Assembly (NCBI GenBank): GCA_000004985.1
Contig: GG738866.1
Direction: 5' to 3' (one strand)
Length of the DNA stretch: 64,000 nucleotides
Source: Naegleria gruberi
Lineage: Eukaryota
A program made the translations under genes and the position numbers. This document shows, piece by piece, positions 841-64,000 of this stretch. A model generated the notes under the pieces. That model had not been told where the DNA came from. It was given only the letters and a program-made list of their open reading frames with translations, and made no database searches. Positions within the stretch are counted from its first letter, which is position 1, and each line of letters opens with the position of its first letter.

Positions 841-3780
841 ATGTCTCAACCAGAGCAAGCACAAAAATTTAAAGAAGAAGGAAATCAATTTTTCAAATTG
901 AAAAAGTATGATCGAGCCATTGAATTATATTCAAAATGTATAGAATTAGATCCGAACAATTCCATCTATTATTCCAACAGAAGTGCCTGCTATCAGAATA
1001 TTGCCGATTATCGATCCATGATTCGTGATGCAGAACAAACCATAAAATTGGATCCGAAATTCAGTAAAGGTTATTTCAGACTTTCGAAAGGTTTGATGGA
1101 ATTGAATCGTTTCGGAAAAGCCTATCAAGTATTAGCAGATGCTCTCAATAATCAACAATTAAATCAATCAAAGGAAGAGAGATCAACTTTTGAATCGGAA
1201 TTGAACAAGTGCATTCAGAAATTACAGGATGAACAGGCACTGTTGGAAAAAACTCAGGAATTGATTAATCCCTTCTCGAATATGAATTCATCATCATCAG
1301 TGATGAGGAGAATTGAAATGGAAATGAGAAGGGAATTTTATTTAAATCATTTCGTAAGGAAGGAACACAAGATTGTCATTATTGAAAAATTGGATGATTT
1401 ATTGAAGGCAATGAAGAGTGTTGTGAAAAGAGTTGGAAATTTGGATCAATTGAAACAAGCAAATGATAGCACTGTAACTGAAAAGGATGGAAAGATCATG
1501 TTGGGTGAAAAGGAGCAAGATTTAATCAATGAGGAATATAAGAATAGAGCCCTTCCAACAAGTTGCTTAAATTGGAGATATCAAGTGCAACACATTGAAC
1601 CAATCATGAAGGAATTGGAAGAGATGGGAATTGGATTCTTGGAAATTTGTGCTGTCATTTTGGTTTTCTTTGCGAGACCAGAAATTTCCTACACCTTGCT
1701 GAAGAGAATGTTAAAGAGTGATACTTCCCTTCAATCGAATGAGAGTAAGGTTCATGCCTATGTACTTCTCGCTCAGTCTCATCTCTTCTGGAAGGGAGTC
1801 CCAAGAAGGGATATTGGCCTCTCATCAAATGATAACAGGCCATTGCAATATTTGAGAAGTGCACTCTCCTTGTTGGAAAAGGTTGACAAGAAGAATTACA
1901 ACTCCACTGTGAATCATATCCTCGTTTGGACCTATATCAACTTGATTCAACAATGCTGTCTACCTGGTGATGAGACAAGAATCTCTGTGGAGGATTTAGA
2001 ACATTTGATGAATGATTTTTATCAGATTCTTTTCATTTTGGACAGCTCAGAATTGTCAGAGTTTTCTCACATGAATGCTCTCTGTCAGGATGGAATTAGA
2101 TTTTGGTTTGCTCATTTACAAAGTCAACTAGGAGCTTTTGATCAGTTCCAAAGAGTTTCTCTTCTTCCTGATCATGAGGTTGTTTCATTGGTAGAGAAAA
2201 TGTTCAATGAATTCCACTCTGCCAACTTGCCCCTCCCAAAGCAATGCCTGAACAAGTTCTTTTTGCATGCCTTGTCAGAGAGTTTACTCATGAGAAACAA
2301 TTTGGAAGGATTTTTGAGGAATATTCGATTAGGTTTATTGTCAATTGCAGAGATGAATCGAACAAGAGAAAAGAAGAATTCATCATTCCTCGAGCCAAGT
2401 ATGCACTCTTTACACTATGCACTTGCTCTTCAATGTTTCCACAATAGATATGCTTTTAGAAAGACTGATAATGAGAGGAATTTATTGAAGAATTGCATTG
2501 AAAGATTTGATGAAATTGTTCATGCCTATGATTTCTCCAACTCTAAAAAGTTGAATTTGTTGGAAAATTTGGAGTTGCACGATTTATTGGTAGTGATTAG
2601 CATGTATGGATCTGATTATTTGTGTGAATCATTCACTCATTTCTGCACCATTACTCATTTACATCATCGTGATTATCCATATTTATTGACAAGATTATTG
2701 ATTCAAACTGTAAGAATACCAAAAAAGATCAAATCCATTCATCAATTGAATGAAGGAGGAATTTTATCTGATTATTATGAAAAGTCTTTATCAATTATTT
2801 CTAATGAAGATTCTCTGGTAAAGAGCAATAATATTATAACATCTACTCTAAAGATTAATAAGGAAATTGAGTGGATAAATAACAATGAGTATTGGTCCCA
2901 AGGATTCGATCAGGAGAATGTAAAAGTATTATTAATTAAGGATGCAATTGATTTGGGAGATTTAAAGAAATATACTCACAAATATCAATCATGTTTATTG
3001 ACAGCTATGGAAACGAGTTCTGATTTTCATTTTGCATTCTTGAAGGAGGTGCTAAAAAGTGAAGTTAACTTGCTGAGAGCAAACACTGATTCATCAACAA
3101 TTTTGGAAAAATTGACAGGAAGCGTCTTTGATGTTTTGGAAACAAATACTCACCTATTCAAGCAAGAAAAGACACTCCAAGATTTGATACAACACAACGT
3201 GAGAGAAGGTGCCATTGTAAAGCTTTCACTTCCATCTCAATATTTGGCCAAGTTTCTAAAGTCGGTGAGAAACTTTTTGATTCAATCTTTAGCAATAGAT
3301 ATCTTTGAAAGGGATGAATTTGATAATATTCCAAAATTGAAGAGAGCTCCAACTAAGGATGAACTAATAAGAGCAAGAGAATTGCTTTCTCTTCATCCTT
3401 CACCGTTTGCTGAGCAATTTTCAAAATTGGCAGAATTTTATAATTTGAATTCATTTGCTGATTTGATATTTTCACCATTGGGGAATGATTTGGATGAGAA
3501 TAATAGGAATGGATTTTCTTTTGAGAAAATGGCTCAATATGTGGAAAAGACTCTTGGATTGAGAATTATTTCACTCTCAACCTCTTTAATGCCATTCCAA
3601 GGCATTCTTCAGGAATACATTGAAGAAACAAAGGATATCAAGTTGAGAGATTGGAAAGCAATGGATTTATTTGCAAAATCAAATAGTGCATATTTCACAT
3701 CTCCACTTTATGTTTTATGTGAAAAGCCAGTCAAGAAGGTTGATATTTCATTGATAAGAAGAAAGATCCACTTGGCTTGA
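841..3780 (+). CDS. TPR-repeat protein (979 aa): N-terminal 3xTPR domain (Hop/Sgt/Tom70-like) plus a long alpha-helical C-terminal region
   Basis: Uninterrupted ATG…TGA ORF. The N-terminus AQKFKEEGNQFFKLKKYDRAIELYSKCIELDPNNSIYYSNRSACYQNIADYRSMIRDAEQTIKLDPKFSKGYFRLSKGL is a textbook TPR1-3 array. An AT-rich promoter lies upstream. Confidence 0.8.
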   Translation: MSQPEQAQKFKEEGNQFFKLKKYDRAIELYSKCIELDPNNSIYYSNRSACYQNIADYRSMIRDAEQTIKLDPKFSKGYFRLSKGLMELNRFGKAYQVLADALNNQQLNQSKEERSTFESELNKCIQKLQDEQALLEKTQELINPFSNMNSSSSVMRRIEMEMRREFYLNHFVRKEHKIVIIEKLDDLLKAMKSVVKRVGNLDQLKQANDSTVTEKDGKIMLGEKEQDLINEEYKNRALPTSCLNWRYQVQHIEPIMKELEEMGIGFLEICAVILVFFARPEISYTLLKRMLKSDTSLQSNESKVHAYVLLAQSHLFWKGVPRRDIGLSSNDNRPLQYLRSALSLLEKVDKKNYNSTVNHILVWTYINLIQQCCLPGDETRISVEDLEHLMNDFYQILFILDSSELSEFSHMNALCQDGIRFWFAHLQSQLGAFDQFQRVSLLPDHEVVSLVEKMFNEFHSANLPLPKQCLNKFFLHALSESLLMRNNLEGFLRNIRLGLLSIAEMNRTREKKNSSFLEPSMHSLHYALALQCFHNRYAFRKTDNERNLLKNCIERFDEIVHAYDFSNSKKLNLLENLELHDLLVVISMYGSDYLCESFTHFCTITHLHHRDYPYLLTRLLIQTVRIPKKIKSIHQLNEGGILSDYYEKSLSIISNEDSLVKSNNIITSTLKINKEIEWINNNEYWSQGFDQENVKVLLIKDAIDLGDLKKYTHKYQSCLLTAMETSSDFHFAFLKEVLKSEVNLLRANTDSSTILEKLTGSVFDVLETNTHLFKQEKTLQDLIQHNVREGAIVKLSLPSQYLAKFLKSVRNFLIQSLAIDIFERDEFDNIPKLKRAPTKDELIRARELLSLHPSPFAEQFSKLAEFYNLNSFADLIFSPLGNDLDENNRNGFSFEKMAQYVEKTLGLRIISLSTSLMPFQGILQEYIEETKDIKLRDWKAMDLFAKSNSAYFTSPLYVLCEKPVKKVDISLIRRKIHLA

Positions 3781-3826: not shown

Positions 3827-5309
3827 TTATCTACGAGTACAAATGAGTTGACCTCTTGGATGTAAACCTTCTTCTTCCAAAGTCTTGTTAATATTAGCTG
3901 ATGTGAGGGAGTATGTTTTTGGTGGAACACCTGGGCAATTGAATGAGAAAGTAGAATCCTTAACCAATGTGGCAATGTGAGCATGGACAGCCTTAATGGT
4001 ATCAGTTGGTTTGAATTTGGCAGTTATGGTTGTACCATCCAAAAGACGAACTCTGATGGCACTTTCTTGTGGTTGGGCAGGAGTTTGAGTGGTAGTTGGA
4101 GTGCTAGTGGCTGAGGATGAACCTTCAGAGCTAGTTGGAGTGGTGTCACGAGCGAGGAAGGCCTTCAAACCCATTCTTTGCAAATCAGTGAGATCCTTTT
4201 CGGCTTGACGAAGTTCTTCAGCCTTACCTTCTTGTCTGAATCTGTCCATCTTTCTTCTAATTTTATCTTCTTCGAGCAATTGTTTCATTCTGAGTTTTTC
4301 CTTCTTTTCGTCTTGCTTTTCCTTCTTGAATAATTCCAAATCTCTCTTCTTTTGATCTTCCTTGAGCTTTTCCATAGTTTCCATGGCCAATTTACCTTGT
4401 TCTCTACGTTTTAATTCTCTTTCCCTTTGTGATTTCTTTTCCTCTTCTTCCATCTTTCTCTTATTTTCCATTCTCTTTTGTTTGAGAAGTTCCTTCATTT
4501 CTTCAGCACGTTTCTTCTTATCTTCTTCAGTTTCAACAGTGAATTGAATCATTTCATCAATATCAGGATCTTCTTGATGTTCAAGCAACCATTCAATACA
4601 TCCTTCCTTTGAAGGTGGTTGTGGTGAATTCAAGAGAGCCTTCATTGATCTCAATTTAGAAAATTCCATTTCCATAAGTTCCTTAAGAATGTTAGCATCA
4701 ACAACTTTTTCAATTTCAGCCATAACTTGTTCATCAGAAACAGTTGTATCTACAGCTTTGGTTTCAGAGCTTGATGATTCTGTGGTGGTTGATGATGGTG
4801 TAGTTGTGGAGGATGAAGAATCAGTCTTTTTAGCATCAGTAGATGGCTTTGTTGTGGCCTTCTTTAACTTGTTTTGCAACAAGGACAATTCAATAGCCTT
4901 ACGAGTTTCGTCATCCAATTCATCAATTTCATCTTCCATAGCATCAACCTTTCTTACTGGTCTATGTTCATCAGCCCATGGATTTTTATAGACTTGACCT
5001 GCCAATCCTGATGAAGTTGTTGTATCAGAACTACTACTACTACTGGTTGCTCCCAAACTTCTACCACCTCCTTGGAAGGCTTGGAATGAATCTCCATATT
5101 CGTTAATCAATTTTTCTACTTTTTGAATATCAGCTCCGACTACAGATGTGAGCTTTGTATTATTCTTATAAAAGACAAATGTTGGCATTGCTCTAACTTC
5201 TTCCTTTGAGGAAATTGCATTATGTTTATCAACATCAACTTTGAGGAAGACAACGTTTGAATATTTAGAGGCAAGTGCTTCATAATGTGGTTTAATCATT
5301 TGACATGGT
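3827..5309 (-). CDS. thioredoxin-UIM-UBA-UBX protein, exon 2. Joined to 5559-5662 across a 249-nt intron (5310-5558), product is about 528 aa
   Basis: The acceptor atatag (rc 5310-5315) is followed by A CCA TGT CAA ATG ATT AAA CCA, giving G-P-C-Q-M-I-K-P and completing WCGPCQMIKP…[13 protein letters not shown]…[10 protein letters not shown] (thioredoxin fold). Downstream motifs: UIM-like [14 protein letters not shown]; UBA-like [11 protein letters not shown]…[16 protein letters not shown]; a K/E/R coiled coil; C-terminal UBX-like [28 protein letters not shown]…PRGQLI. Stop TAA is rc(3827-3829). Confidence 0.75.
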
Positions 5310-5558
5310 CTATATTATTATCATCATTAAATCATATGAATGATTTTGTATATTATTATTATTTCAATCAATGAAAATACAAGATATACATTGTGATCAC
5401 AAAATTAAATCATCGTCATTACATAACCAATTATAATTATCATCATCCGAATATTATTATTATTAAACCAATGATTAATATAAATTATTAATTAGTTAAT
5501 ATATTAATGATCACACAACAATCTCTACCCGATCAAAATCCAACATCACACAACTTAC

Positions 5559-5662
5559 CCACACCATTCAGCATAAAAATCAGCAACCACCAACTTTCCA
5601 GTGCTATTACGGAGGTAACCTCTGAATTCCTCTTCAGAATTAATGTGTTTAACCTTGGACAT
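5559..5662 (-). CDS. thioredoxin-UIM-UBA-UBX protein, exon 1 ([35 protein letters not shown], ends in phase 1)
   Basis: ATG is rc(5660-5662). The exon ends in …GAA TGG TGT GG directly before a GTAAGT donor (rc of acttac 5553-5558). It encodes the front half of the thioredoxin WCGPC motif. Confidence 0.7.
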
Positions 5663-9982: not shown

Positions 9983-10032
9983 NNNNNNNNNNNNNNNNNN
10001 NNNNNNNNNNNNNNNNNNNNNNNNNNNNNNNN
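9983..10032. other. 50-N assembly gap
   Basis: A run of exactly 50 n, directly abutting the 3' end of the U2 gene. Confidence 1.
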
Positions 10033-47716: not shown

Positions 47717-50700
47717 CTAATTTATTTTATTACTAAACCATGAATCAAAGTCTTCTTCTTCTTCATTATTAGATTGAGCAGTAGTGGATGATGTATTGAT
47801 AGGCACATTCTTAATGCTTGCATTTGATAGCCTCTTGGTCTTGTTTGATCCAGTATTCTCGGTCTTTCTGAAGAATTGTGAAATTGTTTGCAACTTTTCA
47901 GCCTCTTCCATAATCGATTGTTGTTGTTGAGATTTGGAGGTATGATCTTCGAAATTAGGTTGTGGACTTGTAGCTTCTGATGATTGTGGCGAGTTCAAGT
48001 CTTCCTCTTCCTTGTAGGATTGTTTTAATTGATTGAAAAGATAACTCTGTTGATGTTCTGGAAGTACAACCTTATGAGTTGGTATTTCTTCCTTATTGTG
48101 AGGTTCAGTATTTGGTGACTGTACTGAACTTGTATTACTGACATCTTCGAAAATTCTATTGTTGGATGTCTTTTCAACACTATATTTTGCATCGTCTTCA
48201 TCGTCACTGCTATTATTATTACTTGCAAGGATTTGATTTGATACAGTGCTTCGGAAATCAAACTTTGGCTGGTGAGTATTTACATTGCTTGGTGCAATAT
48301 TTTGAGTGGAGTGAGATTGGCTTTCTGGGAATTCGTCACTATCAGATGATTCTTCCTTTGGAGAGAGTAAATCTTTCAATTCATTTTGTCTTTCCAAAGT
48401 TGAGAAGCTCATTGTTGGTTTTCTTTCCACAAGTGGAGAATCGAGAGGAGACTTTTTGAATGGCAACAAAACGGCTACCTTTGTTATTTGAGAAAGGAAT
48501 GTTTCCTTCTTCCCAACAGTGGATTCTTCTGCTGTGGAATCATCTGAAGGAGTGTTGACTCCGTCCCTTGAGGGCATATTGCCCAGTGGTGTATTGGTTT
48601 TCATGGCCATATCCCTGTACTTTTTCTCGACACCTTCCATACGTCTTCTCAGGGTGCTGAAGGTGCTCTCTTCATTTTCATCATCATCCACTGCATCTTC
48701 TTCATCTGCAGTTGGAGGTCTTCTCAGTTTAATCTTGTTAAAAACATATCCTGTCAATACAAGAATTTGAGAGAAGAAGAAGAGTAAAAAGGCCAACAAG
48801 TAAAATACCCACTCCTTAAGCTTGGTTGATATTCTAGCACTGTGCATTGAGTTGACCTTATTTTCCAATTCCTTGAGTCTACTTTCGTAGAGCTTGATAT
48901 CCTCTTCATGACTGGTTACTTTATCCTTAGTGATGGCTTGGGCTGAGTTCAACTGTAAGACAATAGTCGACAGGTGATTCATTCTTGACTCGATTTTTTC
49001 CACCTTATTCTTTAACTTATCAACAGTGACGTTCTTGTCAGTCATTTGCAGTCTTGATTGTTCGTGAGCATCATTAACTCTCTTCTTGGTATCCAGCAAG
49101 TCCAACTTGAGATTGTGAATTTCATTCATCAAGGTCTTTTCAGTGCATTGTAATTCCTCCTTTACCTTTTGAACAGCACTTGTTTGTTCCTTATGACCTG
49201 AGGAATACAATAAGCCATCATAAAGAGCGTATGATCGTGGAGTTTGTGAGACAAAAGTAGATTGTGAAATATCAGTAGAACTATCTCCTTCTATAGTGGA
49301 TTGGAAAACTCTTCCAGAGAGTAAATCATCTGAAACATCAATATTGAGGGAGTCTAGGAGAGTTTTACGTTCTGGCTTGTCGCGTGGTGTTAATTGAGAT
49401 GGTATACTTGGATTCAGACTCATACGATCCAGCAACTCTAAATCCTTTGCGGAGAAGGCAGGATTCTGGTAAGGAATGTATTGGAAACGAAGATGTACTT
49501 GAGAGAACGTTTTGGTACCTAGTGGCGTAATTAGACAGAACCAATCATCTAGAATTCTATCCTTGGCCAGTTTAACTCGAGAAATTGGAATTGAAACAAA
49601 TCCCAGACACATAATCTCATTCTTAGATTTAGGCTTTGGTGGACTGTGGAAAATTTCAATAGAGATTGAGCTAGATTCATCAGAAACGTAGAATTTAAAT
49701 TCCTCTTGCCACTTGAGTTTCTTGTTTAGATAGGCCCCACCAAGATTCATTGTTGTGTGCTTCTTTCCCTCACATAAAATTTCACAATACGTCACATAGT
49801 CTTCCAGTAGGATATTTTCTGTATTCTCCTCTTCATTTCCCAAAGCGTCCATTGATTGTAAGGATTTGACTCGCTTTTGAAGTGGTTGACCAGAGACTGA
49901 TGTATTCAGTGCTGACTCATTGGTATTATATCCCTCAACGGATTTCAAGTTTCTAGTCTGAACGTCAGTCACATACAGTTCTCCAATAGCCTCTCGCTTC
50001 TGCTCTTCCGGTGGAACATATACATAATCATAACTCTCAATATCTAGTGACATTCTATCGTTCTCTCCTCTCACCTTTGGTTGTGCCAGATAGTTTGGAA
50101 TAATTTTCTTTGGCACTGACTTGATAAAGGATGGAGCATTCTTCACTGTCGAAACGCCCTTCTTCACTTCATCTCTGATATTTTTCTTAAATTCCTTAAA
50201 ACTGTGCTTTATAGCGTGGGCAGGATTGGTGGTATTGGCGTATTCAGGGTTTCCAATTCCTTTAAATTTGTTACTAGTAGAAGAATTATTTGGTGTGATC
50301 CAATTTGTTGGAAAAGGTTTCTTGACACCACTACTAGAAGCTCTAGAAGGAAGACTATGTACATGAAAATGACCTTTTGAGTCCTCACTTGGTTGAGTCG
50401 TGCTTGTGGTTGGTTGAGCATGATCCCCTATTGTTGAATCTTCCGAATTAAGGTACTTTTCTGCATCCTCTGATTGACTTCTTTTCGGAGACGGTTTTCG
50501 GAATAAACTTTCACCACTGAGTTGAAACTTTTCTCTTTGGTGATGTCTAATAGACCCAGCTCGCTTATGTGATTTTTCTTGTTTTCCATGTTCATCCTCA
50601 ATAATAATTTCCGTACATATAGAAACAGCAGCTGAATTTTCATCGAAAGAATTGCTTCTCTTTTTCACCATTGGAGTTAAATCAGTTGGCGAAGGAGGTG

Positions 50701-51346
50701 ACAAGGCATTGAGAGGTTTTGAATTATTTACAAATGAATTGACTGTTGCTGGTCGATGAATTGAATCACTAGTGAGATTATTTCTATTTACATTCCCACT
50801 AATATTATTACTTGATGGAATTTCGAATGATATATTATTTGTATGTAATGCTGCTGTTGCACTAAGTGGGCTTCCACTACTACCTGATCGATTTCTCGGA
50901 GAAGATTGCATATTTATCTTTAAATCAGATTCTAAAGATGATGAAGTTGGAACAGTTGGTTCCTGTTTGTATAGTTTGTATTTCCTCTCCTTGTACGAAT
51001 TTACAATGGCTAAAGGTGATTTTTCCAAAGAGTTTCGTTTTATATCTAGATTGATAGTATTATTATTAGGTATGCTTATATTCATTGGTTTAGTACTGCT
51101 ATTACTTTGTCCAGCATTGGATGACATTGTATTGTTTGTTTCTTGATTGATTCTCGGAGAATTATTCAATGTCGTTGAAGATACAAGTTGTTGTTGATTA
51201 TTTACACCTACAGTAGTTGTTGTCGTTGAAGAATTATTATTAACCACCACTGTCGAACTAGTATTATTATTATTAGATGTTGTTTGTTGTTGATGCGCCG
51301 AACCACCTACCAACAATTCTCTTGGTGGTGTTGATGAGAAAGGCAT
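47717..51346 (-). CDS. large S/T/N-rich protein (1209 aa) with a C2-like domain, coiled coil and a single transmembrane helix
   Basis: Uninterrupted ORF, ATG rc(51344-51346). The C2-like block is TYCEILCEGKKHTT…KWQEEFKFYVSDESSSISIEIFHS…NEIMCLGFVSIPISRVKLAKDRILDDWFCL. A heptad-rich stretch LMNEIHNLKLDLLDTKKRVNDAHEQ…KELENKVNSMH precedes a hydrophobic helix WVFYLLAFLLFFFSQILVLTGYVF, then an acidic/Ser-rich tail. Confidence 0.6.
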   Translation of the reverse strand: MPFSSTPPRELLVGGSAHQQQTTSNNNNTSSTVVVNNNSSTTTTTVGVNNQQQLVSSTTLNNSPRINQETNNTMSSNAGQSNSSTKPMNISIPNNNTINLDIKRNSLEKSPLAIVNSYKERKYKLYKQEPTVPTSSSLESDLKINMQSSPRNRSGSSGSPLSATAALHTNNISFEIPSSNNISGNVNRNNLTSDSIHRPATVNSFVNNSKPLNALSPPSPTDLTPMVKKRSNSFDENSAAVSICTEIIIEDEHGKQEKSHKRAGSIRHHQREKFQLSGESLFRKPSPKRSQSEDAEKYLNSEDSTIGDHAQPTTSTTQPSEDSKGHFHVHSLPSRASSSGVKKPFPTNWITPNNSSTSNKFKGIGNPEYANTTNPAHAIKHSFKEFKKNIRDEVKKGVSTVKNAPSFIKSVPKKIIPNYLAQPKVRGENDRMSLDIESYDYVYVPPEEQKREAIGELYVTDVQTRNLKSVEGYNTNESALNTSVSGQPLQKRVKSLQSMDALGNEEENTENILLEDYVTYCEILCEGKKHTTMNLGGAYLNKKLKWQEEFKFYVSDESSSISIEIFHSPPKPKSKNEIMCLGFVSIPISRVKLAKDRILDDWFCLITPLGTKTFSQVHLRFQYIPYQNPAFSAKDLELLDRMSLNPSIPSQLTPRDKPERKTLLDSLNIDVSDDLLSGRVFQSTIEGDSSTDISQSTFVSQTPRSYALYDGLLYSSGHKEQTSAVQKVKEELQCTEKTLMNEIHNLKLDLLDTKKRVNDAHEQSRLQMTDKNVTVDKLKNKVEKIESRMNHLSTIVLQLNSAQAITKDKVTSHEEDIKLYESRLKELENKVNSMHSARISTKLKEWVFYLLAFLLFFFSQILVLTGYVFNKIKLRRPPTADEEDAVDDDENEESTFSTLRRRMEGVEKKYRDMAMKTNTPLGNMPSRDGVNTPSDDSTAEESTVGKKETFLSQITKVAVLLPFKKSPLDSPLVERKPTMSFSTLERQNELKDLLSPKEESSDSDEFPESQSHSTQNIAPSNVNTHQPKFDFRSTVSNQILASNNNSSDDEDDAKYSVEKTSNNRIFEDVSNTSSVQSPNTEPHNKEEIPTHKVVLPEHQQSYLFNQLKQSYKEEEDLNSPQSSEATSPQPNFEDHTSKSQQQQSIMEEAEKLQTISQFFRKTENTGSNKTKRLSNASIKNVPINTSSTTAQSNNEEEEDFDSWFSNKIN

Positions 51347-51588: not shown

Positions 51589-52665
51589 TCAATTTGAATT
51601 CTTGTGAGGAAGAATTTCTATAATGTTGGGTGTCTTAATTCGCGTATCGGAGTGAGTGAGTACTGAAGCTGCATTCGAATAAATGAGAGGCTTTGGAGTG
51701 TCCTTAGTCTGTGGCTCTATTGCAGTTGCATGGAATTCGTGGACATGACCATATAAATGGGCCTGCAGCCTTCCATTGGAATTCAACTCAATGACCTTAT
51801 TTCTCAAATGATTATCACCCCAGTGACCTCTGTATTTATGTTCCTTTTTACAATATTCACAATAGTAAGGATCGTCCCTTGTGGAGGCGAGGTCCATAAT
51901 TCCAAATGGTGGCATGTGAGTGATTAGGACATCAGTATTGAGAGGAATTTTATCCCACTTGGTTTTGATAATCTTCCAAGAGATGGAGAACCCCATTCTT
52001 GAACTAGTTGTCCAAGGACTGCCGTACAATCTCAATAATTCAGTACCTCTATAATTGATCAGTAATGATTGATCTTGCAAATAAATAACATTCTTCAACA
52101 CTCGTTTTTGAATAAACTCAGGACTCAATCCATTAAATCCAATTTCATGATTTCCAGCAATTACAATTTTAATCTTGTGTGGTAATTTTCCAATCCATTC
52201 ATTAAATGAAATAATACTAGGAACTGATTCGTACATTTCCTCTCTATTAACATTTGGATTTGTTTGTACAGCATTCTCAATCCTGTCCTCAAGATCATAC
52301 CATTCACTTTTGTGAGAAATATCACCACTGTGTATGAAAATGTCACCATCAGGAACTGTTTTTAAATACTGATGAGAAATATGACTATCACTCATATGAA
52401 CAATTGTAATTTTTCCCTCGGGATGTTCTTCCATCATTGGTAAACTATCAATGGAAATTTCTCTATCAGCAGTCGATTCACTCGGTTTGTTCTTATTACT
52501 AGAAGATGATGCTGATTGTTTCATTATTTGCTTGTTATCAGTTGTTGATGGATCCACTTTGGAAGGAATTTCGAATTGTTTTGTTTCTTCTTCATCTCCA
52601 CATCTATCGGAAGAAGAACTCATCAATCCACTAAGCCATTTACTAAATGATGATGATGCTGACAT
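51589..52665 (-). CDS. calcineurin-like metallophosphoesterase (MPPED1/2-like), 358 aa
   Basis: Metallophosphatase motifs are in canonical order: HMSDSH (GDxH), HSGDI (GD), IAGNHE (GNHE), ITHMPP (H…P) and YGHVHEFHA (GHxH). The N-terminal leader is Ser-rich. ATG rc(52663-52665). Confidence 0.75.
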   Translation of the reverse strand: MSASSSFSKWLSGLMSSSSDRCGDEEETKQFEIPSKVDPSTTDNKQIMKQSASSSSNKNKPSESTADREISIDSLPMMEEHPEGKITIVHMSDSHISHQYLKTVPDGDIFIHSGDISHKSEWYDLEDRIENAVQTNPNVNREEMYESVPSIISFNEWIGKLPHKIKIVIAGNHEIGFNGLSPEFIQKRVLKNVIYLQDQSLLINYRGTELLRLYGSPWTTSSRMGFSISWKIIKTKWDKIPLNTDVLITHMPPFGIMDLASTRDDPYYCEYCKKEHKYRGHWGDNHLRNKVIELNSNGRLQAHLYGHVHEFHATAIEPQTKDTPKPLIYSNAASVLTHSDTRIKTPNIIEILPHKNSN

Positions 52666-55456: not shown

Positions 55457-56256
55457 TTAAACAATAATGTCAGAACCGAGAGCCTTAACCAAGTTGGCAA
55501 CAGCAGCCATTTGAGAACCTTGCTTGTTAGCAAAGTTTTGACCACTGTAAGCAAACCAATCCCAACACCCATTAGGATTGGAGAACATTTGACCACTTGA
55601 AACTTGTGGATAGACTACAATGATATTACTTCTTTCAGCAACTTCATTCAAACCAGTGTGTTGAACGAATTGTTCTTGAACATAAGAAGCACCTTGCTCA
55701 CAACCGTGGAAAGAAACGTGAATCTTACATTGAGTATTTTGTTGACAAGCAGTTGGAATGTAAATATAACCCTTGCTGTCCATGTCAGTGCCAGAGAAGG
55801 AATTAGATTGGTCATAAGTGAACAAGTTAGAATCTTGAGCCTTACCAACAGTAACGTTACCATAGATGGCACCCAAAACACGTTGACCACCTGGGAAGTT
55901 ACAATTGTTAATCCATGGGCTTTGAGTAATTGAACAATCATTACCATAGTCATTGGTAATCCAAGCGTGACCAGCTGGAACAGTGAAAGTAGCATTAATG
56001 TTAGCAGCAGGAACACCCAACTTTCTATATTGTTCAAAGAGAGCCTTCATGACAGATGGGTTGACAGTATTGTCAGAGGTACCACTGAACATAAAGACTT
56101 TGTGATTCTTAATGTTGGCAATTGGATCAATGACATTTTGAGAAGCATATTGTTGCAAGGTTTGTTGCAAAGAATCCAAATCAATTGGGAGAGCAGCATA
56201 CATACATTGGTCAAAAGCATAGGCCATTTGTCCTTGAGAACAGAAGAATGGACCAC
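55457..56256 (-). CDS. LpqC/PHB-depolymerase-family esterase, exon 2 (joined to exon 1 across a 460-nt intron 56257-56716)
   Basis: After acceptor …caattcaaag, the exon reads GT GGT CCA TTC TTC TGT TCT CAA GGA CAA ATG GCC…, giving …AG-G-GPFFCSQGQMAYAFDQC…. FMFSGTSDNTV is a conserved acid/His region, and …HGCEQGASYV…NPNGCWDWFAY is the family signature. Stop is rc(55457-55459). Confidence 0.55.
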
Positions 56257-57793: not shown

Positions 57794-59435
57794 TAAATGT
57801 GACCGATCACTACCAATATGTAAAGAATGTAAATCACGAGGAAGAGAATGTTGCTATCCACCACCCATGAAGAAAGGTCCTCAGCCTAAAACCTCATCAC
57901 CCGAACAACACTCACCTTCTTCATCAGCCTCTTCTCTTGATAAAACCTCTCATCAAGTTTATAATACTTCTTCTTCATCATCATCAATTAAATCAACAAG
58001 TTTATCATCACATAGACACAATCCCTATCAAACAACAACACCTTCATCATTACCTTCCTCTCATTATGACATTTCTAATAATTCATCAGAACCTGCACCA
58101 TTCAATTATCAAATCATTGATTTATACTTTGATGTTGTGAGTGTTGGTTGTCCTGTTTTACAAAGAGATGCCATGTTGATGATTTGTTCGAAAAGACCTG
58201 AGGAAAATTCAAAGGCTGAGGAAGTGGCAATGCTCTATGCTATTCAAGCATTGTGTTATCAAAGATTGGGAAGAAAACTGGAAGGAAGGGCATCTTTCAA
58301 AATGGCAAGAAAATTCCTGTCGGATGTTTTTGACATTTTGGATAATTTTCAAATTGCTGCTACATTTCTATATCTTGCAAATTTTTGTATTGGAGAAGGA
58401 GAACCAAATCAGGCCAAGTATTATTTGAATAGTGTTCAATTTTTCATTGATCAAAATAAGGAACAATTGGCAAATGATGAATTGTTTGGAAATTTGTGTA
58501 AAATGTTCATGTATATTGGATTGTTAATGAAGGAGGATGCTGTTATCTTCTCCAATGATGAAGGTCTTCAAGAAGGGGTTGGCACAGATTTAAAGAAACA
58601 ACTCATTCTTTCAGAGAAGGCTCTTGTAGTCATTTATCAATTCTTTGTCTTTTTCACACAACATATTTCAGATGGTGAGTGTGGAAAGACAGTTCCACCA
58701 TCTACTTCTGAAAGTATTTTACAGGAATACATTCTAACAATCAATAGTCAGGCAATACAATACAATAGATATCAATTGGAGAGCTCTCCAGCCAAATCAA
58801 GTGTTCACAAACTTTTACACTTGTTTATCATTGATGGATTGAGATTGGGAATATTATTGAAATCACCTAATAATGCTGATGACGCTATCATTGAAATTGC
58901 CAACAGAGTCACCAATTATTCCACCTTAATGTACTTTCCTTATTTACCTTCCCATATTATCTCTGTTGTCGCTAATGCAGCAAGAGTTCACCTGGCAATT
59001 GTAAAACAAATACAAAGAAGGGAGCGATTTGATAATGGCGTGGATTACCATGACATTATTAGGAAAGATCACAGAGCTTTAACCATACTCGCTGACAGAT
59101 ATACCATTGCAGAAAACAAGGCAAGAACTCTTGTTAAACAATTACGTGATGAGTTGGTAGAACGTGAAAATCAATTGGCTAGAATGTACCGACAACCAAC
59201 CCAGCAACAATCTCTGCCTCAATATTCTGCCATTGATTTGCCAAATGTAATTCCAAATGATGAGGAATCTTCACAAAGACTTGAAGAAATGCTTGCCAAT
59301 AATCCTGGTATTGATAAATTGCCACCACTTCCATCATCAAATGAGGAGCAAGCATCTAGTCCATTCCTAGATTTTGACTTTTTCACCCCATCCAATAGTG
59401 AGAATTTCTACACTGACCCACAAATGTTACTGTAA
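57794..59435 (+). CDS. Zn(II)2Cys6 transcription factor, exon 2 (rest of the zinc cluster plus fungal-type TF middle-homology region); 129-nt intron 57665-57793
   Basis: After acceptor …ttatatag, the exon reads T AAA TGT GAC CGA…, giving R-KCDRSLPICKECKSRGRECCYPP. The complete cluster is CIAC-RKSHRK-C-DRSLPI-C-KE-C-KSRGRE-C, which is CX2CX6CX6CX2CX6C. The downstream …IIDLYFDVVSVGCPVLQRDAMLM… region resembles the fungal_trans domain. It is in frame with ORF 57867-59435. Confidence 0.7.
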
Positions 59436-60849: not shown

Positions 60850-62451
60850 TCATTCTTGTGCTCTGATTGCAGAAATTATTGCCTGATTCAGATCGTCTTT
60901 AGAAATTGGCTTGTTGAGGCACGAATCAATAGAGTCCATATTATTAAACTTGTCCATTAGGGCATCAGCCGTTAAGAGAATAATTTTGACCTTATCACCA
61001 TTTGGCAAGGATCGAATCTCATTTGCTGCGTCAATTCCATTAATGATGGGCATGTGAAGATCCGTTACAATTATAGGGTGATACTCCTTCCTGAAGGCCT
61101 CAATCAACTCGAAACCATTGGCACTTGTTGTGATATTTTTGAATCCACCTTTTTGTAATAGTTTTTTAAGTACAGAAAGATTGATAGGATTGTCCTCAGC
61201 AAGTAATATCTTAGTTTCAAAGATATCAATGCAACCTGTAACGGTGACGGAACTCGTGTTTTCCGTAGTGTTGGTTGTTGTGGTCGTAGTGCTTGTAGTA
61301 ATGGATCCCGTAGAATCTTGTAGAGAATGTTTTGGCGAGGCAGTAGTACTGCTCTTTGATTGTCTCTTCTTCATCATGTACAATTCCTTATGGAGGAGGT
61401 GAGTTTTTTGAATTTCGCTATCAATATTATTTAGAGCATTTGGTATGGTGCCCAAATCATCACTCTTCTTAATGTGAGAGTCGAGCAAAATGGTACTGGC
61501 ACCAGAAGATGAGGTCATACTCTCAGTACTCATCGATTGATTCACAATTGGATTTGTTCTGAGGATTTCTTCAATTTGTTTGAGGGAATTCTTCTTCTTT
61601 TTATCAGGAAGTTGGAATGGAATTGAAATGCAAAATGTAGTACCATGATTTGGTGATGGTTCACAAAGGGTTCTATAGCTAATGCCACCTTTCATGTTGA
61701 TAATAATCTTTCTAAGAATGGTCAATCCAAGGCCTGTGCCAATCACACTACCATCACCATTGTGATTGTGACTGGAGAAGGGTTTGAAGAGTAATTTTTG
61801 AATATCCTTCTGAATACCACATCCATGATCGATAACCTTGAAAACAACAGTCTTGATGGTTGGAGTTTCTTGTTGGAGGAGTGTTTGTGCTGATGATTCA
61901 GTACTGGTGGTACTTGTTGGCTCAATGGATAGATCCTTCCTCTTGACTACTACAATTTCCTTAGCGCTTGATCTTCCATCATCAATGATATCTTCTGGAT
62001 TATCATCCTCGAGTACTTCAACTGCGAGGGTAACAACTTGATTTCTCGAAGAAGCCTTAATTGAGTTGGTTAATAAATTGATAAGAACTTGTTGCAAACG
62101 AACACTCTCTCCCAAAACATAGGACGGAAGGAATTTGCTCGTCACAAAATCAATGGTCACATCAAAGTTAGAAGCATACGAGCTGGCAATGCTTCTCACA
62201 TGTTGTAAACAATCGAAGAGGGAAAAGACAGTCTTGTGGTTTTCAACCTTTTCTTCATTAGTTGTATTTTTACCAAGCATTGAATTGGTGGCAATTTCCA
62301 TGTTTGTCTTTTCAAGTTTTGAATATTGTAAAATATCTTCAATCAGGGTTAACAAGATTGAGGAACAACTTCCAATAGTTTTGATGTAATTAATTTGTTC
62401 AGCATTTAGAGTTGTATCCAATAAGAGTTCAATGCTTCCAGAAATACTCAT
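60850..62451 (-). CDS. hybrid sensor histidine kinase, exon 2 (rest of HisKA + HATPase_c + receiver domain)
   Basis: The HisKA continuation is MSISGSIELLLDTTLNAEQINYIKTIGSCSSILLTLIEDILQYSKLE. The ATP-lid has VIDHGCGI (G1) and GTGLGLTILRKII (G2). The receiver is KILLAEDNPINLSVLKKLL…IIVTDLHMPIINGIDAANEIRS…KIILLTADA. Stop TGA rc(60850-60852). Confidence 0.85.
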   Translation of the reverse strand: MSISGSIELLLDTTLNAEQINYIKTIGSCSSILLTLIEDILQYSKLEKTNMEIATNSMLGKNTTNEEKVENHKTVFSLFDCLQHVRSIASSYASNFDVTIDFVTSKFLPSYVLGESVRLQQVLINLLTNSIKASSRNQVVTLAVEVLEDDNPEDIIDDGRSSAKEIVVVKRKDLSIEPTSTTSTESSAQTLLQQETPTIKTVVFKVIDHGCGIQKDIQKLLFKPFSSHNHNGDGSVIGTGLGLTILRKIIINMKGGISYRTLCEPSPNHGTTFCISIPFQLPDKKKKNSLKQIEEILRTNPIVNQSMSTESMTSSSGASTILLDSHIKKSDDLGTIPNALNNIDSEIQKTHLLHKELYMMKKRQSKSSTTASPKHSLQDSTGSITTSTTTTTTNTTENTSSVTVTGCIDIFETKILLAEDNPINLSVLKKLLQKGGFKNITTSANGFELIEAFRKEYHPIIVTDLHMPIINGIDAANEIRSLPNGDKVKIILLTADALMDKFNNMDSIDSCLNKPISKDDLNQAIISAIRAQE

Positions 62452-62558
62452 CTATATTTTTGCATTCAGCAGTGATATATTTGAAATATATTGTTAAATA
62501 TATGATTAGTTTCAAAGGTAGAAAAATATTTGAATCGGGTTATAAAGTTTAAACATAC

Positions 62559-64000
62559 CAATGGAGATCTAAACTCATGAGAAATGGAACTGACAAGTGC
62601 ATTCTTGGAACGATTAGCTTCCTTCAGTTTGCTTGTCATTAACTTCATAGTATTGAGTCTGTTCATTAACTTGTAACTCACCGAATTGAGCATAAAGTTC
62701 AAAACAGTAAGCAAGCAAAAAGTACCAAATGCTTCAACATATCGATTATGGACCACTGACAAAATGATGGCAATACCCACCGAAACAATGTGTTGTGAGA
62801 GGATAACCCACATGATAGCCTCATATGAGTGTACCCTGCAATCCACAAGTGCATTCTGAAGAATAATGTATGAATAATTGTGCACAGTGCTCGAGAGGAA
62901 TCCAATCATTAGCCATCCAACAGTATAATCCTTTGTGCACAACAAAAGTCTAAGGAAGAACACTGCAATATTCACTACAATCATAACTTTGCAAGTGTAG
63001 ACTTCCAACAACCGTTGTTTCTTTGCTGCCAAATAGGAAGCATCTACAGGTGTTCCACTTGAGGAAGAAGAGGATGCTCTCGTGGTGGTGGAGGATGTCG
63101 ACGATGAGCCAACACTTCCAAATCTCCAAAAATCACTTGATGAATAGAATGGAACAGTGTTTGGTTCCTTTTGTCCTTCAGATGTTGATGATGATGGGGG
63201 TAGGGGTGTTGTGAGTGGAATTACACTCTGATCAGAATTGCCACCAACAATATCTTCATGTTCTACAATTTCTCCTAGTGTGGCTGCATCCCTGGATAGA
63301 TGTTTTATGAGCCAAACAACCAATCGTTGTTGTACCAAATTTCTAACATATTTAAAATTGATAACAATGGCAATAATGCATAAAAAGCTCATGCTAATTG
63401 GATAGTCGGTCGAGTAGACAATCAAATAAGCATAACAAAGGAAAAGACAAATCGGAAGGAAGATTTGGTGCAACTTTTCATTCAAGATCATAGCCGAATC
63501 ACCTTGCATAAAGCTTGTATTATTTGATGATTGATTGAGTTGTGGTGAAGTTGCAGAAGGTGGTTCTGTTGGCGAGCCAAAAATACTATTTCTTCTGTCT
63601 TCAATGTTTGCATTGTTACTAATTGCAGGATTATCAGAAACAGACACTCGAACCTTTTTTGATGAAGTTTCTGTTGTTGGTACATTTGTATTATTTCCAG
63701 AGGATTGATAGGTTGATGTTGTTGTAGTTGAAGGGGTGGTAGAAGTATGTACATTGTTAGTAGAAGAAGAATTGTAGTGAGGTGATGTAAAATTAGAGGC
63801 TGATAAAGAGGAAGCCAGTTCGTCAGCATTGATGGTTGCTCCTGTTGTTGTATCAGGAGAGGATTTTCCAGAACTTGATAAACTCTCATTAGAAGAACAA
63901 GTTGATGAAGTGGAAAGGCTATCATTTCCCGAATCCTTTCTATTGGTATTAATACTTGTTGTTGATGTTTCCACTGTTGGTGAATTTCCTCCAACTAATT
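62559..64000 (-). CDS. hybrid sensor histidine kinase, exon 1 (5'-partial; S/T-rich N-terminus, about 6 TM helices, H-box); 107-nt intron 62452-62558
   Basis: The exon ends …ISHEFRSPL (H-box with the phospho-accepting His) at a GTATGT donor, and the intron ends …aaaaatatag. The splice restores the canonical HEFRSPL-MSISGSIELLLDT motif. Predicted TM helices include IFLPICLFLCYAYLIVYS, FLCIIAIVINF, VMIVVNIAVFFLRLLL, GWLMIGFLSSTV, AIMWVILSQHIVSVGIAIILSVV and TFCLLTVLNFMLNSV. The frame is open to the window edge; the M at 63974 is a GTG codon. Confidence 0.8.

Follow-up and report, generated by a model that had tools for sequence, protein, structure and literature searches.

The DNA examined here, referred to below as the window, is a 64,000-nucleotide (nt) stretch of contig GG738866.1 of Naegleria gruberi (assembly GCA_000004985.1), an organism that an initial annotation, made from the DNA letters, had wrongly grouped with the Amoebozoa and that belongs to the Heterolobosea (Discoba). 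On its minus strand, the window carries a two-exon gene whose predicted product joins an N-terminal thioredoxin domain, a candidate SHP box, a UIM-like helix, a UBA-like domain, a long charged helix and a C-terminal UBX domain (coordinates are collected in Table 1). Taken together, these elements make a strong case that the protein is a cofactor of the AAA+ unfoldase Cdc48/p97 that brings with it a competent thioredoxin.

Re-translation of the spliced coding sequence (1587 nt) gave a conceptual product of 528 amino acids (aa) that was 100% identical over its full length to XP_002677569.1 (UniProt D2VE59), a record named 'thioredoxin domain-containing protein [Naegleria gruberi]'. The same splice is therefore present in the public gene model, and the gene coordinates, intron and product length of the initial annotation were all confirmed. 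The intron has canonical GT..AG splice signals, a GC content of 21% vs. 38% in the exons, and 10-15 stop codons in every frame. As had been claimed, it divides a codon of the CGPC active site, that of Gly35, with a GG/A junction in phase 2; without splicing, the frame runs into a stop directly after WCG. We compared the gene with its orthologues in N. lovaniensis and Willaertia magna, which have a first exon of the same 104 nt and an intron in the same codon and phase, although the introns are 229 and 71 nt long, respectively, compared to 249 nt in N. gruberi. Between genera, exon 1 identity was 74-77%, like that of exon 2, and intron identity was 62% and 27%. The cross-species comparison thus gives good support for the splice. 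Since the splice was predicted from DNA and an in-frame ATG (Met39) lies just past the splice site in the long open reading frame (ORF), one could suppose that exon 1 is not joined to this ORF and that translation in fact begins at Met39, giving a product without the CGPC motif. We consider such an artefact of the gene model extremely improbable, given that the two exons together restore a complete thioredoxin fold by both Pfam and structure superposition, that exon 1 length and intron phase are kept in related genera while intron length and sequence diverge, that the splice signals are canonical, and that homologues from many lineages share the N-terminus.

The initial annotation had described the N-terminus as a bona fide thioredoxin with an intact WCGPC site rather than a UAS fold, and Pfam, superposition on human TRX1 and the conservation of catalytic residues agree with this description. 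The Pfam search that it had proposed for PF00085 gave a match at aa 8-101 (E = 2.8e-27, 95.2 bits vs. a cut-off of 23.5). The domain is ~50% identical to human TRX1, the AlphaFold predicted local distance difference test (pLDDT) score is >90 across aa 1-108, and the model superposes on TRX1 with a template modelling (TM) score of 0.94-0.96 and a root mean square deviation of 0.7-0.9 Å. Neither WCGPC nor the cis-proline P77 varies in alignments of nine and of 32 family members, and the nine-member alignment shows no variation at the buried D28 either; D28 and P77 are the counterparts of D26 and P76 of Escherichia coli thioredoxin. We took a census of the active site in 124 proteins with thioredoxin and UBX domains and in 54 proteins with thioredoxin and UBA domains that lack UBX. 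WCGPC was present in 102 of the former, with WCxPC in another eight and R/T-CGPC in five (11 of the 124 sequences are truncated at the N-terminus and two more are cut off inside the motif), and in 52 of the latter. CxxC is kept in virtually all complete members, which speaks for selection acting on redox chemistry. Judged by its sequence, the domain is a classical thioredoxin with an intact active site, predicted to be a competent reductase, and not a UAS-type pseudo-thioredoxin.

Just downstream of the thioredoxin domain we found a candidate SHP box (also BS1), a motif that is absent from the initial annotation. It starts five residues past the domain (F110-Q-A-F113-Q-G-G-G-R-S-L120-G121), in a segment (aa 110-164) predicted by AlphaFold 2 (AF2) to be disordered (pLDDT <50). 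The published consensus for this motif, which binds the Nc subdomain of the p97 N domain, is FxGxGxxL or h(x)1-2[F/W](x)0-1GxGx2L (PMC7403338, PMC13078151), and the N. gruberi motif fits it fully. Across 32 diverse family members, G117 and L120 were invariant and G121 was conserved in at least 90%. The strict pattern occurred 2-18 aa after the thioredoxin domain in 68 of the 124 thioredoxin-UBX proteins and in 34 of the 54 thioredoxin-UBA proteins without UBX, compared to none of 86 other thioredoxin matches and a chance rate of 0.5% in shuffled versions of the N. gruberi protein; anywhere in the sequence, it was found in one of 15 UBA-UBX matches without thioredoxin. Most of the remaining members have a relaxed form (..G..LG) in the same place, an example being the dictyostelid F-x-T-x-G-x-x-L-G. 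These sequence comparisons point to the SHP box as a second candidate Cdc48-binding motif that is specific to the family.

The C-terminal UBX domain claimed in the initial annotation scored above the Pfam cut-off (PF00789, aa 449-524, E = 1.3e-8, 35.3 bits vs. 21), and its fold and profile both matched UBX domains that bind p97. A model of the domain by itself (pLDDT 83) had as its best folds in the PDB the UBX domains of FAF1, UBXD7 and PUX5, followed by other ubiquitin-like beta-grasp folds, and the family profile matched the UBX domains of UBXN4, UBXD7, p47, FAF1, PUX and UBXD1 with E-values of 2e-18 to 4e-6 (2e-18 to 1e-10 for the first four). The domain is clearly conserved between genera in the alignment. 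The beta1 arginine is kept (I-R-V-R-L-L-D-G), as it is in 111 of the 124 members, N. gruberi included. The canonical F/Y-P-R form of the S3/S4 loop inserts into the cleft between the Nn and Nc subdomains of p97; a loop of the type [FY]P[RK] was present in 100 of the 124 members, and the VPP of N. gruberi in five, all from the Naegleria/Willaertia clade. The loops of p47 and FAF2 from Leishmania, which belongs to the sister lineage within Discoba, read GMPP/GFPP, and both proteins co-purify with LiVCP (PMC7403338). By analogy, VPP may be a variant typical of the Discoba lineage rather than a loss of function. The SHP box would compensate for the atypical loop, because bivalent SHP-UBX binding stabilises PUX5-CDC48A complexes (PMC13078151).

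The UBX domain opens with a hairpin and a helix (aa 451-478, positions 3980-4063, minus strand; 28 residues) that are unusually close to ubiquitin residues 3-30. We considered whether the domain could be ubiquitin itself, as polyubiquitin tops sequence searches of the PDB, and rejected this as an artefact of nine summed weak repeat matches; the Pfam ubiquitin model reached only 14.7 bits vs. a cut-off of 25.4.

Between the SHP box and the UBX domain lie the modules that would contact ubiquitin. AF2 predicts a helix at aa 164-186, over a stretch that the initial annotation had called UIM-like. It has the acidic run and the A-x-x-x-S core of a UIM, with Thr at the hydrophobic (phi) position, and the same position passes the Pfam UIM model (PF02809, 21.2-23.8 bits) in Willaertia and in two metagenomic orthologues, whereas the N. 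gruberi copy falls below threshold. In the nine-member alignment, the UIM is conserved only in the heterolobosean-like clade. A UBA-type domain is present, as had been claimed, although Pfam reported it as UBA_7 (PF22562, aa 239-287, E = 1e-16, 61 bits vs. a cut-off of 27) and not as the predicted PF00627; its closest solved relatives are the UBA domains of AtUBP14 (1vek), mouse UBXN1/SAKS1 (1whc) and UBAC1 (2dai). The segment at aa 296-423, labelled a coiled coil in the initial annotation, was modelled by AF2 as a continuous helix from 296 to 395 plus a second from 398 to 423, with a pLDDT of about 90. A periodicity analysis of this segment revealed no 3.5-residue hydrophobic (heptad) repeat, and we dropped the coiled-coil label; the model suggests that the segment is probably an ER/K single alpha-helix acting as a spacer of roughly 19 nm.

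Table 1. Positions in the window of the thioredoxin-UBX gene and of the elements predicted within it
Feature	Position	Strand	Basis or description
Whole gene, start to stop codon	3827..5662	-	528-aa thioredoxin-SHP-UIM-UBA-helix-UBX protein, N. gruberi XP_002677569.1
Exon 1, 104 nt	5559..5662	-	Met1 to first two bases of Gly35 codon (MSKV...AEWCG)
Intron, 249 nt, GTAAGT...TATAG	5310..5558	-	Phase 2, within Gly codon of CGPC
Exon 2, 1483 nt	3827..5309	-	Includes TAA stop at 3829-3827
Thioredoxin domain, aa 8-101, spans intron	5111..5641	-	Pfam PF00085; W33-C34-G35-P36-C37, buried D28, cis-Pro P77
SHP box (BS1) candidate, aa 113-121, F-Q-G-G-G-R-S-L-G	5051..5077	-	Published consensus and family conservation
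UIM-like helix, aa ~160-180 (21 residues)	4874..4936	-	Sub-threshold UIM_2; orthologues pass Pfam UIM
UBA-like domain (UBA_7), aa 239-287	4553..4699	-	Pfam PF22562; AF2 three-helix bundle
Long charged helix, aa 296-423	4145..4528	-	62% D/E/K/R; AF2 helix; no heptad signal
UBX domain, aa 449-524	3842..4069	-	Pfam PF00789; beta-grasp fold matches
UBX S3/S4 loop, V496-P497-P498	3920..3928	-	Place of canonical F-P-R p97-contact motif

To place the protein, we ran an exhaustive profile search of 1.84 billion representative sequences, which gave 979 matches below 1e-30. This search and one with a dictyostelid member were the informative ones for distribution; a profile search of a word-indexed protein database with the 32-sequence alignment added few new proteins. 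Using hidden Markov models built from the family, we searched for domains in the sequences collected, among them the top 150 of the 979 matches, and nine named members were rechecked by Pfam. The scanned set contained 61 proteins with the order thioredoxin-UBA-UBX, 43 with thioredoxin and UBA but no UBX, and 13 with thioredoxin and UBX. Members came from Heterolobosea (two species of Naegleria, and Willaertia), Amoebozoa (several species of Dictyostelium, Polysphondylium, Tieghemostelium, Acytostelium, Planoprotostelium, Clastostelium, Ceratiomyxa, Phalansterium and Clydonella), red algae (Galdieria, Cyanidiococcus, Porphyridium and Eucheuma), glaucophytes (Cyanophora and Gloeochaete) and CRuMs (Diphylleia). 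Fungi contributed one chytrid record that is flagged as possibly contaminated and the mortierellomycete Actinomortierella, whose proteins (P0186-P0188) share with P0012, from unassigned assemblies, a thioredoxin-SHP-UBX order without UBA in only 276-321 aa, the minimal form of the family. The architecture is thus widespread among protists, in at least five major eukaryotic groups, and is not unique. Where the initial annotation had proposed profiling for it in Amoebozoa and fungi, we found it in both and beyond. Its further suggestion that the architecture is unknown in model organisms did not hold, since Dictyostelium discoideum has a thioredoxin-UBA-ZZ-UBX protein (Q75JM6). Matches in a plant (Reevesia, P0014) and a weevil (Rhynchophorus, P0227 and P0231) also combine thioredoxin and UBX, in a different domain order and in a PF23187/UBXN4-like context; in addition, P0231 lies on a contig of the same length as that of a TXNL1-like gene (P0263). 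We treated these matches as unrelated or as merged gene models and did not count them.

Some members end differently. In oomycetes and ochrophytes (Aphanomyces, Globisporangium, Chrysoparadoxa and Epipyxis), the thioredoxin-SHP-UBA module is followed by PUB, a p97-binding domain other than UBX that binds the Cdc48 C-tail. Proteins with the order thioredoxin-SHP-UBA_7-PUB include P0229 (Aphanomyces invadans), P0225 (Chrysoparadoxa australica), P0224 and P0271. Zinc fingers have also been added, a ZZ finger in dictyostelids and an OTU1-type C2H2 finger in some members, stramenopile PUB forms among them. Because the UBA-helix-UBX module retrieves animal and fungal UBXN1, we regard the family as a UBXN1-type adaptor with an N-terminal thioredoxin and SHP box. 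Tentatively, and with more doubt than confidence, one may go further and see in thioredoxin-SHP-(UBA)-UBX/PUB a single old family, possibly of the age of the last eukaryotic common ancestor, that places a working reductase on the Cdc48 N domain. Thiol-disulfide chemistry would then be an integral and unrecognised step of Cdc48 extraction in most eukaryotic lineages. The family itself would have persisted in Discoba, Amoebozoa, red algae, glaucophytes, CRuMs, stramenopiles and some early fungi, and have disappeared from animals, yeasts and land plants.

The D. discoideum protein Q75JM6 (XP_643331) is of particular use, as it very probably corresponds, from its sequence, to the published UBXD18. 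It has 540 aa in the order thioredoxin-UBA_7-ZZ-UBX, with the ZZ zinc finger between the UBA domain and the charged helix, and is encoded on chromosome 2 (locus L003, 3001-4855). Its UBX domain showed 28/53% identity/similarity to that of UBXN4 and 29/51% to that of UBXN1 (with a UBXN1 sequence entered by hand), compared to published values for UBXD18 of 27/51% and 28/51%, respectively (PMC7519326). UBXD18 (DDB_G0276057), whose UBA domain was struck by a restriction enzyme-mediated integration (REMI) insertion, has UBXN1 and UBXD2 as its nearest human relatives and a partly conserved S3/S4 loop (PMC7519326). GFP-UBXD18 pulls down Ddp97-RFP (Warren et al., PNAS 2020, PMC7519326), and UBXD18 modulates the ATPase activity of p97 and is required for the inhibition of p97 by decanoic acid (PMC7519326). 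A thioredoxin domain is nowhere mentioned in the text or supplement of that paper. UBXD18 is probably a direct orthologue of the Naegleria protein. The two introns of the Q75JM6 gene lie after codon 5 (phase 1) and after codon 64 (phase 0), and neither falls in the CGPC codons. The intron within the Naegleria active site is therefore uninformative on deep ancestry, and we dropped it as evidence for such ancestry.

Among known systems, UBXN1/SAKS1 is close in architecture. The C-terminal ~290 aa have the same order, with a UBA_7-type UBA (..W-L-x-E-H-x-D-D-x-D-I-D..), a long charged helix and UBX, and the dictyostelid member retrieved animal and fungal UBXN1 with E-values of 1e-32 to 1e-21 at 63-65% coverage. 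In contrast, UBXN1 has no thioredoxin, UIM or SHP box, its loop is FPR/YPR and its UBA domain is N-terminal, whereas the Naegleria protein has 238 extra N-terminal residues with the thioredoxin, SHP box and UIM. Within the family, UBXD18 differs from the Naegleria protein in that dictyostelids add ZZ and have no UIM, a relaxed SHP-like motif, a canonical YPR loop and other intron positions. Other UBX cofactors also have a module with a thioredoxin fold, namely FAF1, FAF2 (UBXD8) and UBXN7, in which it is a UAS domain, and UBXN4 (UBXD2), whose UBX is the closest solved UBX by sequence to the family profile (E = 2e-18); however, their thioredoxin-like domains lack CGPC and do not belong to PF00085. 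Two-point attachment to Cdc48 through a linear FxGxGxxL motif plus UBX or PUB is known from p47/Shp1, p37 and PUX3-5 (SHP and UBX) and from PUX2 (SHP and PUB) (PMC13078151). In these proteins, SHP adjoins SEP/UBX, whereas the Naegleria SHP box lies ~330 residues upstream, directly past the catalytic domain.

A parallel in function is TXNL1/TRP32, in which a classical CGPC thioredoxin is likewise tethered to an ATP-dependent machine for unfolding and degradation. TXNL1, which consists of thioredoxin and PITH, is redox active and sits on the 26S proteasome (PMC12700817, PMC12700798, PMC10570131). TXNL1-type thioredoxins were the best non-family sequence matches after TRX1. However, the TXNL1 tether is PITH, which attaches to Rpn11/Rpn2/Rpn10, and TXNL1 has no UBX, SHP or UBA; a Pfam scan of the Naegleria protein gave no match to PITH (PF06201, PITH/DUF1000). 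TXNL1 is thus a functional analogue and not an architectural relative. Thioredoxin-family proteins that act with Cdc48 are also found in sPUB of SELMA (thioredoxin and PUB) and in Arabidopsis NRX1, which acts on CDC48A (PMC12412216, PMC13616930). NRX1 differs in being a separate soluble protein rather than a fused cofactor, and sPUB differs in that its thioredoxin is reported to be YbbN-like and targeted to a plastid compartment (PMC12412216). SELMA sPUB has been described as restricted to stramenopiles and chromerids (PMC12412216); our Naegleria family searches retrieved the thioredoxin-SHP-UBA-PUB proteins of oomycetes and ochrophytes.

From these comparisons we propose that the Naegleria protein may be a cytosolic Cdc48 cofactor of the UBXN1/SAKS1 type to which an N-terminal thioredoxin and an SHP box have been added. 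The UBX domain and the SHP box would each attach to an N domain of Cdc48, so that the protein is anchored at two points; the SHP box would hold the thioredoxin only a few residues away from the N domain, and the charged helix, ~19 nm long, would keep the two points apart across the Cdc48 hexamer. The UIM and UBA would catch ubiquitin chains on clients, and Cys34/Cys37 would reduce aberrant intra- and intermolecular disulfides in these ubiquitylated clients, which could then be separated, threaded and passed to the proteasome, with the thioredoxin being recycled by thioredoxin reductase. The protein would in this way play at Cdc48 the part that TXNL1 plays at the 26S proteasome. We assign this full statement, a UBXN1-type cofactor docked on Cdc48 through UBX and SHP whose thioredoxin reduces disulfides in ubiquitylated clients, a probability of about 0.5. 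It is favored by the recurrence of the thioredoxin-SHP-UBA module tied to PUB in oomycetes and ochrophytes and by the thioredoxin-UBX proteins without UBA in Actinomortierella. Several points weigh against it. The coupling of disulfide reduction to a segregase, suggested already in the initial annotation, is something we infer; the same applies to catalysis, to the binding of Cdc48 by the Naegleria protein, to the identity of the thiol substrate and to the geometry. The S3/S4 loop retains only the Pro of F/Y-P-R, and the N. gruberi UIM-like stretch reaches 16.3 bits with UIM_2, under the cut-off of 21. The equation of Q75JM6 with DDB_G0276057 is based on matching descriptions and percentages and not on an accession cross-reference; the UBXD18 paper and its supplement (PMC7519326) yielded no sequence, length or primers that would link the accession, and a literature search found no other paper citing either accession. 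Because Cdc48 is able to thread branched chains, disulfide reduction before Cdc48 processing is not established as a need. Finally, a thioredoxin anchored on the N domain would suit the reduction of Cdc48's own cysteines equally well.

The last point leads to the most serious competitor of client reduction, namely that the SHP-docked thioredoxin acts on redox-sensitive cysteines of Cdc48 itself, keeping them in the reduced state and so restoring ATPase activity after oxidative stress, with clients not being the substrate. Oxidation of Cys271 inhibits Arabidopsis CDC48A, which is re-reduced by NRX1, and that report also cites oxidation of p97 Cys522 and of yeast Cdc48 (PMC13616930); a preprint on a yeast Cdc48 redox switch exists as well. 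The SHP box would hold the thioredoxin within ~5 residues of the N domain, and the UBA-less thioredoxin-UBX members keep both the thioredoxin and the p97-binding modules without any ubiquitin binding. However, most members have a UBA and the Naegleria clade has a UIM in addition, and neither would be needed to service Cdc48, which favors clients as the substrate. We regard reduction of Cdc48 as a possible but less likely function, with about half the credence we give to reduction of clients.

It is also conceivable, and rather unlikely in our estimation, that the thioredoxin works mainly without turnover and serves as a redox sensor or a holdase-type receptor for clients that modulates a UBXN1-like and possibly inhibitory adaptor. 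UBXN1 often restrains p97 reactions instead of promoting them. For TXNL1, a chaperone function that is independent of ATP and redox state has been reported (PMC10570131). Yet a working oxidoreductase would be expected to keep both cysteines, the cis-Pro and the buried Asp, as these proteins almost universally do. The restriction of VPP in place of FPR to the Naegleria/Willaertia clade (5 of the 124 members) could, on the other hand, mean that the UBX loop is degenerate and that the Naegleria protein no longer binds Cdc48, leaving a free ubiquitin-binding thioredoxin that, for example, shuttles or reduces ubiquitylated proteins elsewhere. We think this improbable, more so than a sensor, because the N. 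gruberi SHP box fits its consensus fully and such a box is able to bind p97 independently (PMC13078151), neither the beta1 Arg nor the invariant Pro of the loop has been lost, VCP co-purifies with discoban p47 and FAF2, whose loops are of the xPP type (PMC7403338), and the UBX domain remains clearly conserved between genera.

Public databases already list the gene and its domains, and the architecture is shared with other lineages, a model organism among them. This analysis adds the SHP box, the unusual loop of the UBX domain, the reinterpretation of the supposed coiled coil, the wide spread of the family and the parallel form that ends in PUB; in our literature search, neither a thioredoxin-UBX fusion nor the Naegleria gene was described in any paper. 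Catalogues of Cdc48/p97 cofactors draw almost exclusively on animals, yeast and plants, and we know of none there with a catalytic oxidoreductase. That a family joining thioredoxin and SHP to a UBXN1-type adaptor has been conserved suggests that disulfide reduction is brought right to the unfoldase in many eukaryotes. If true, this would have parallels in the TXNL1-proteasome complex, solved recently, and in the redox switch of plant NRX1-CDC48A. Because ubxd18 mutants of Dictyostelium are available, the family is open to genetic tests of whether disulfides are a barrier to processing by Cdc48 or the proteasome, or whether Cdc48 needs a dedicated reductase.

We examined the genes neighboring the thioredoxin-UBX gene and found no functional link to it. 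A plus-strand ORF of 979 aa with N-terminal TPR repeats (841-3780) is convergent with it, with 46 bp between the two stop codons. A tail-to-tail TPR neighbor (1060 aa) is also present in N. lovaniensis (locus L001, 5941-9123) and not in Willaertia (locus L002). Masked sequence or an assembly gap takes up over half of the window, with runs of N at 9983-10032 (50 bases) and 11059-46783 (35,725 bases), and we rejected ORFs of ~12,000 aa across the N run as artefacts. Beyond the long run, two long ORFs had no Pfam match (47717-51346, minus strand, 1209 aa; 57867-59435, plus strand, 522 aa), and the minus strand encodes a metallophosphoesterase (51589-52665) and an esterase of the PHB-depolymerase type (55457-56227). 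A hybrid histidine kinase with HisKA, HATPase_c and receiver domains is encoded at 60850-62451 (minus strand), and the 502-aa ORF upstream of it (62466-63974, minus strand), which has no Pfam match, may be the sensor part of this kinase, split off by an intron or a frame change.

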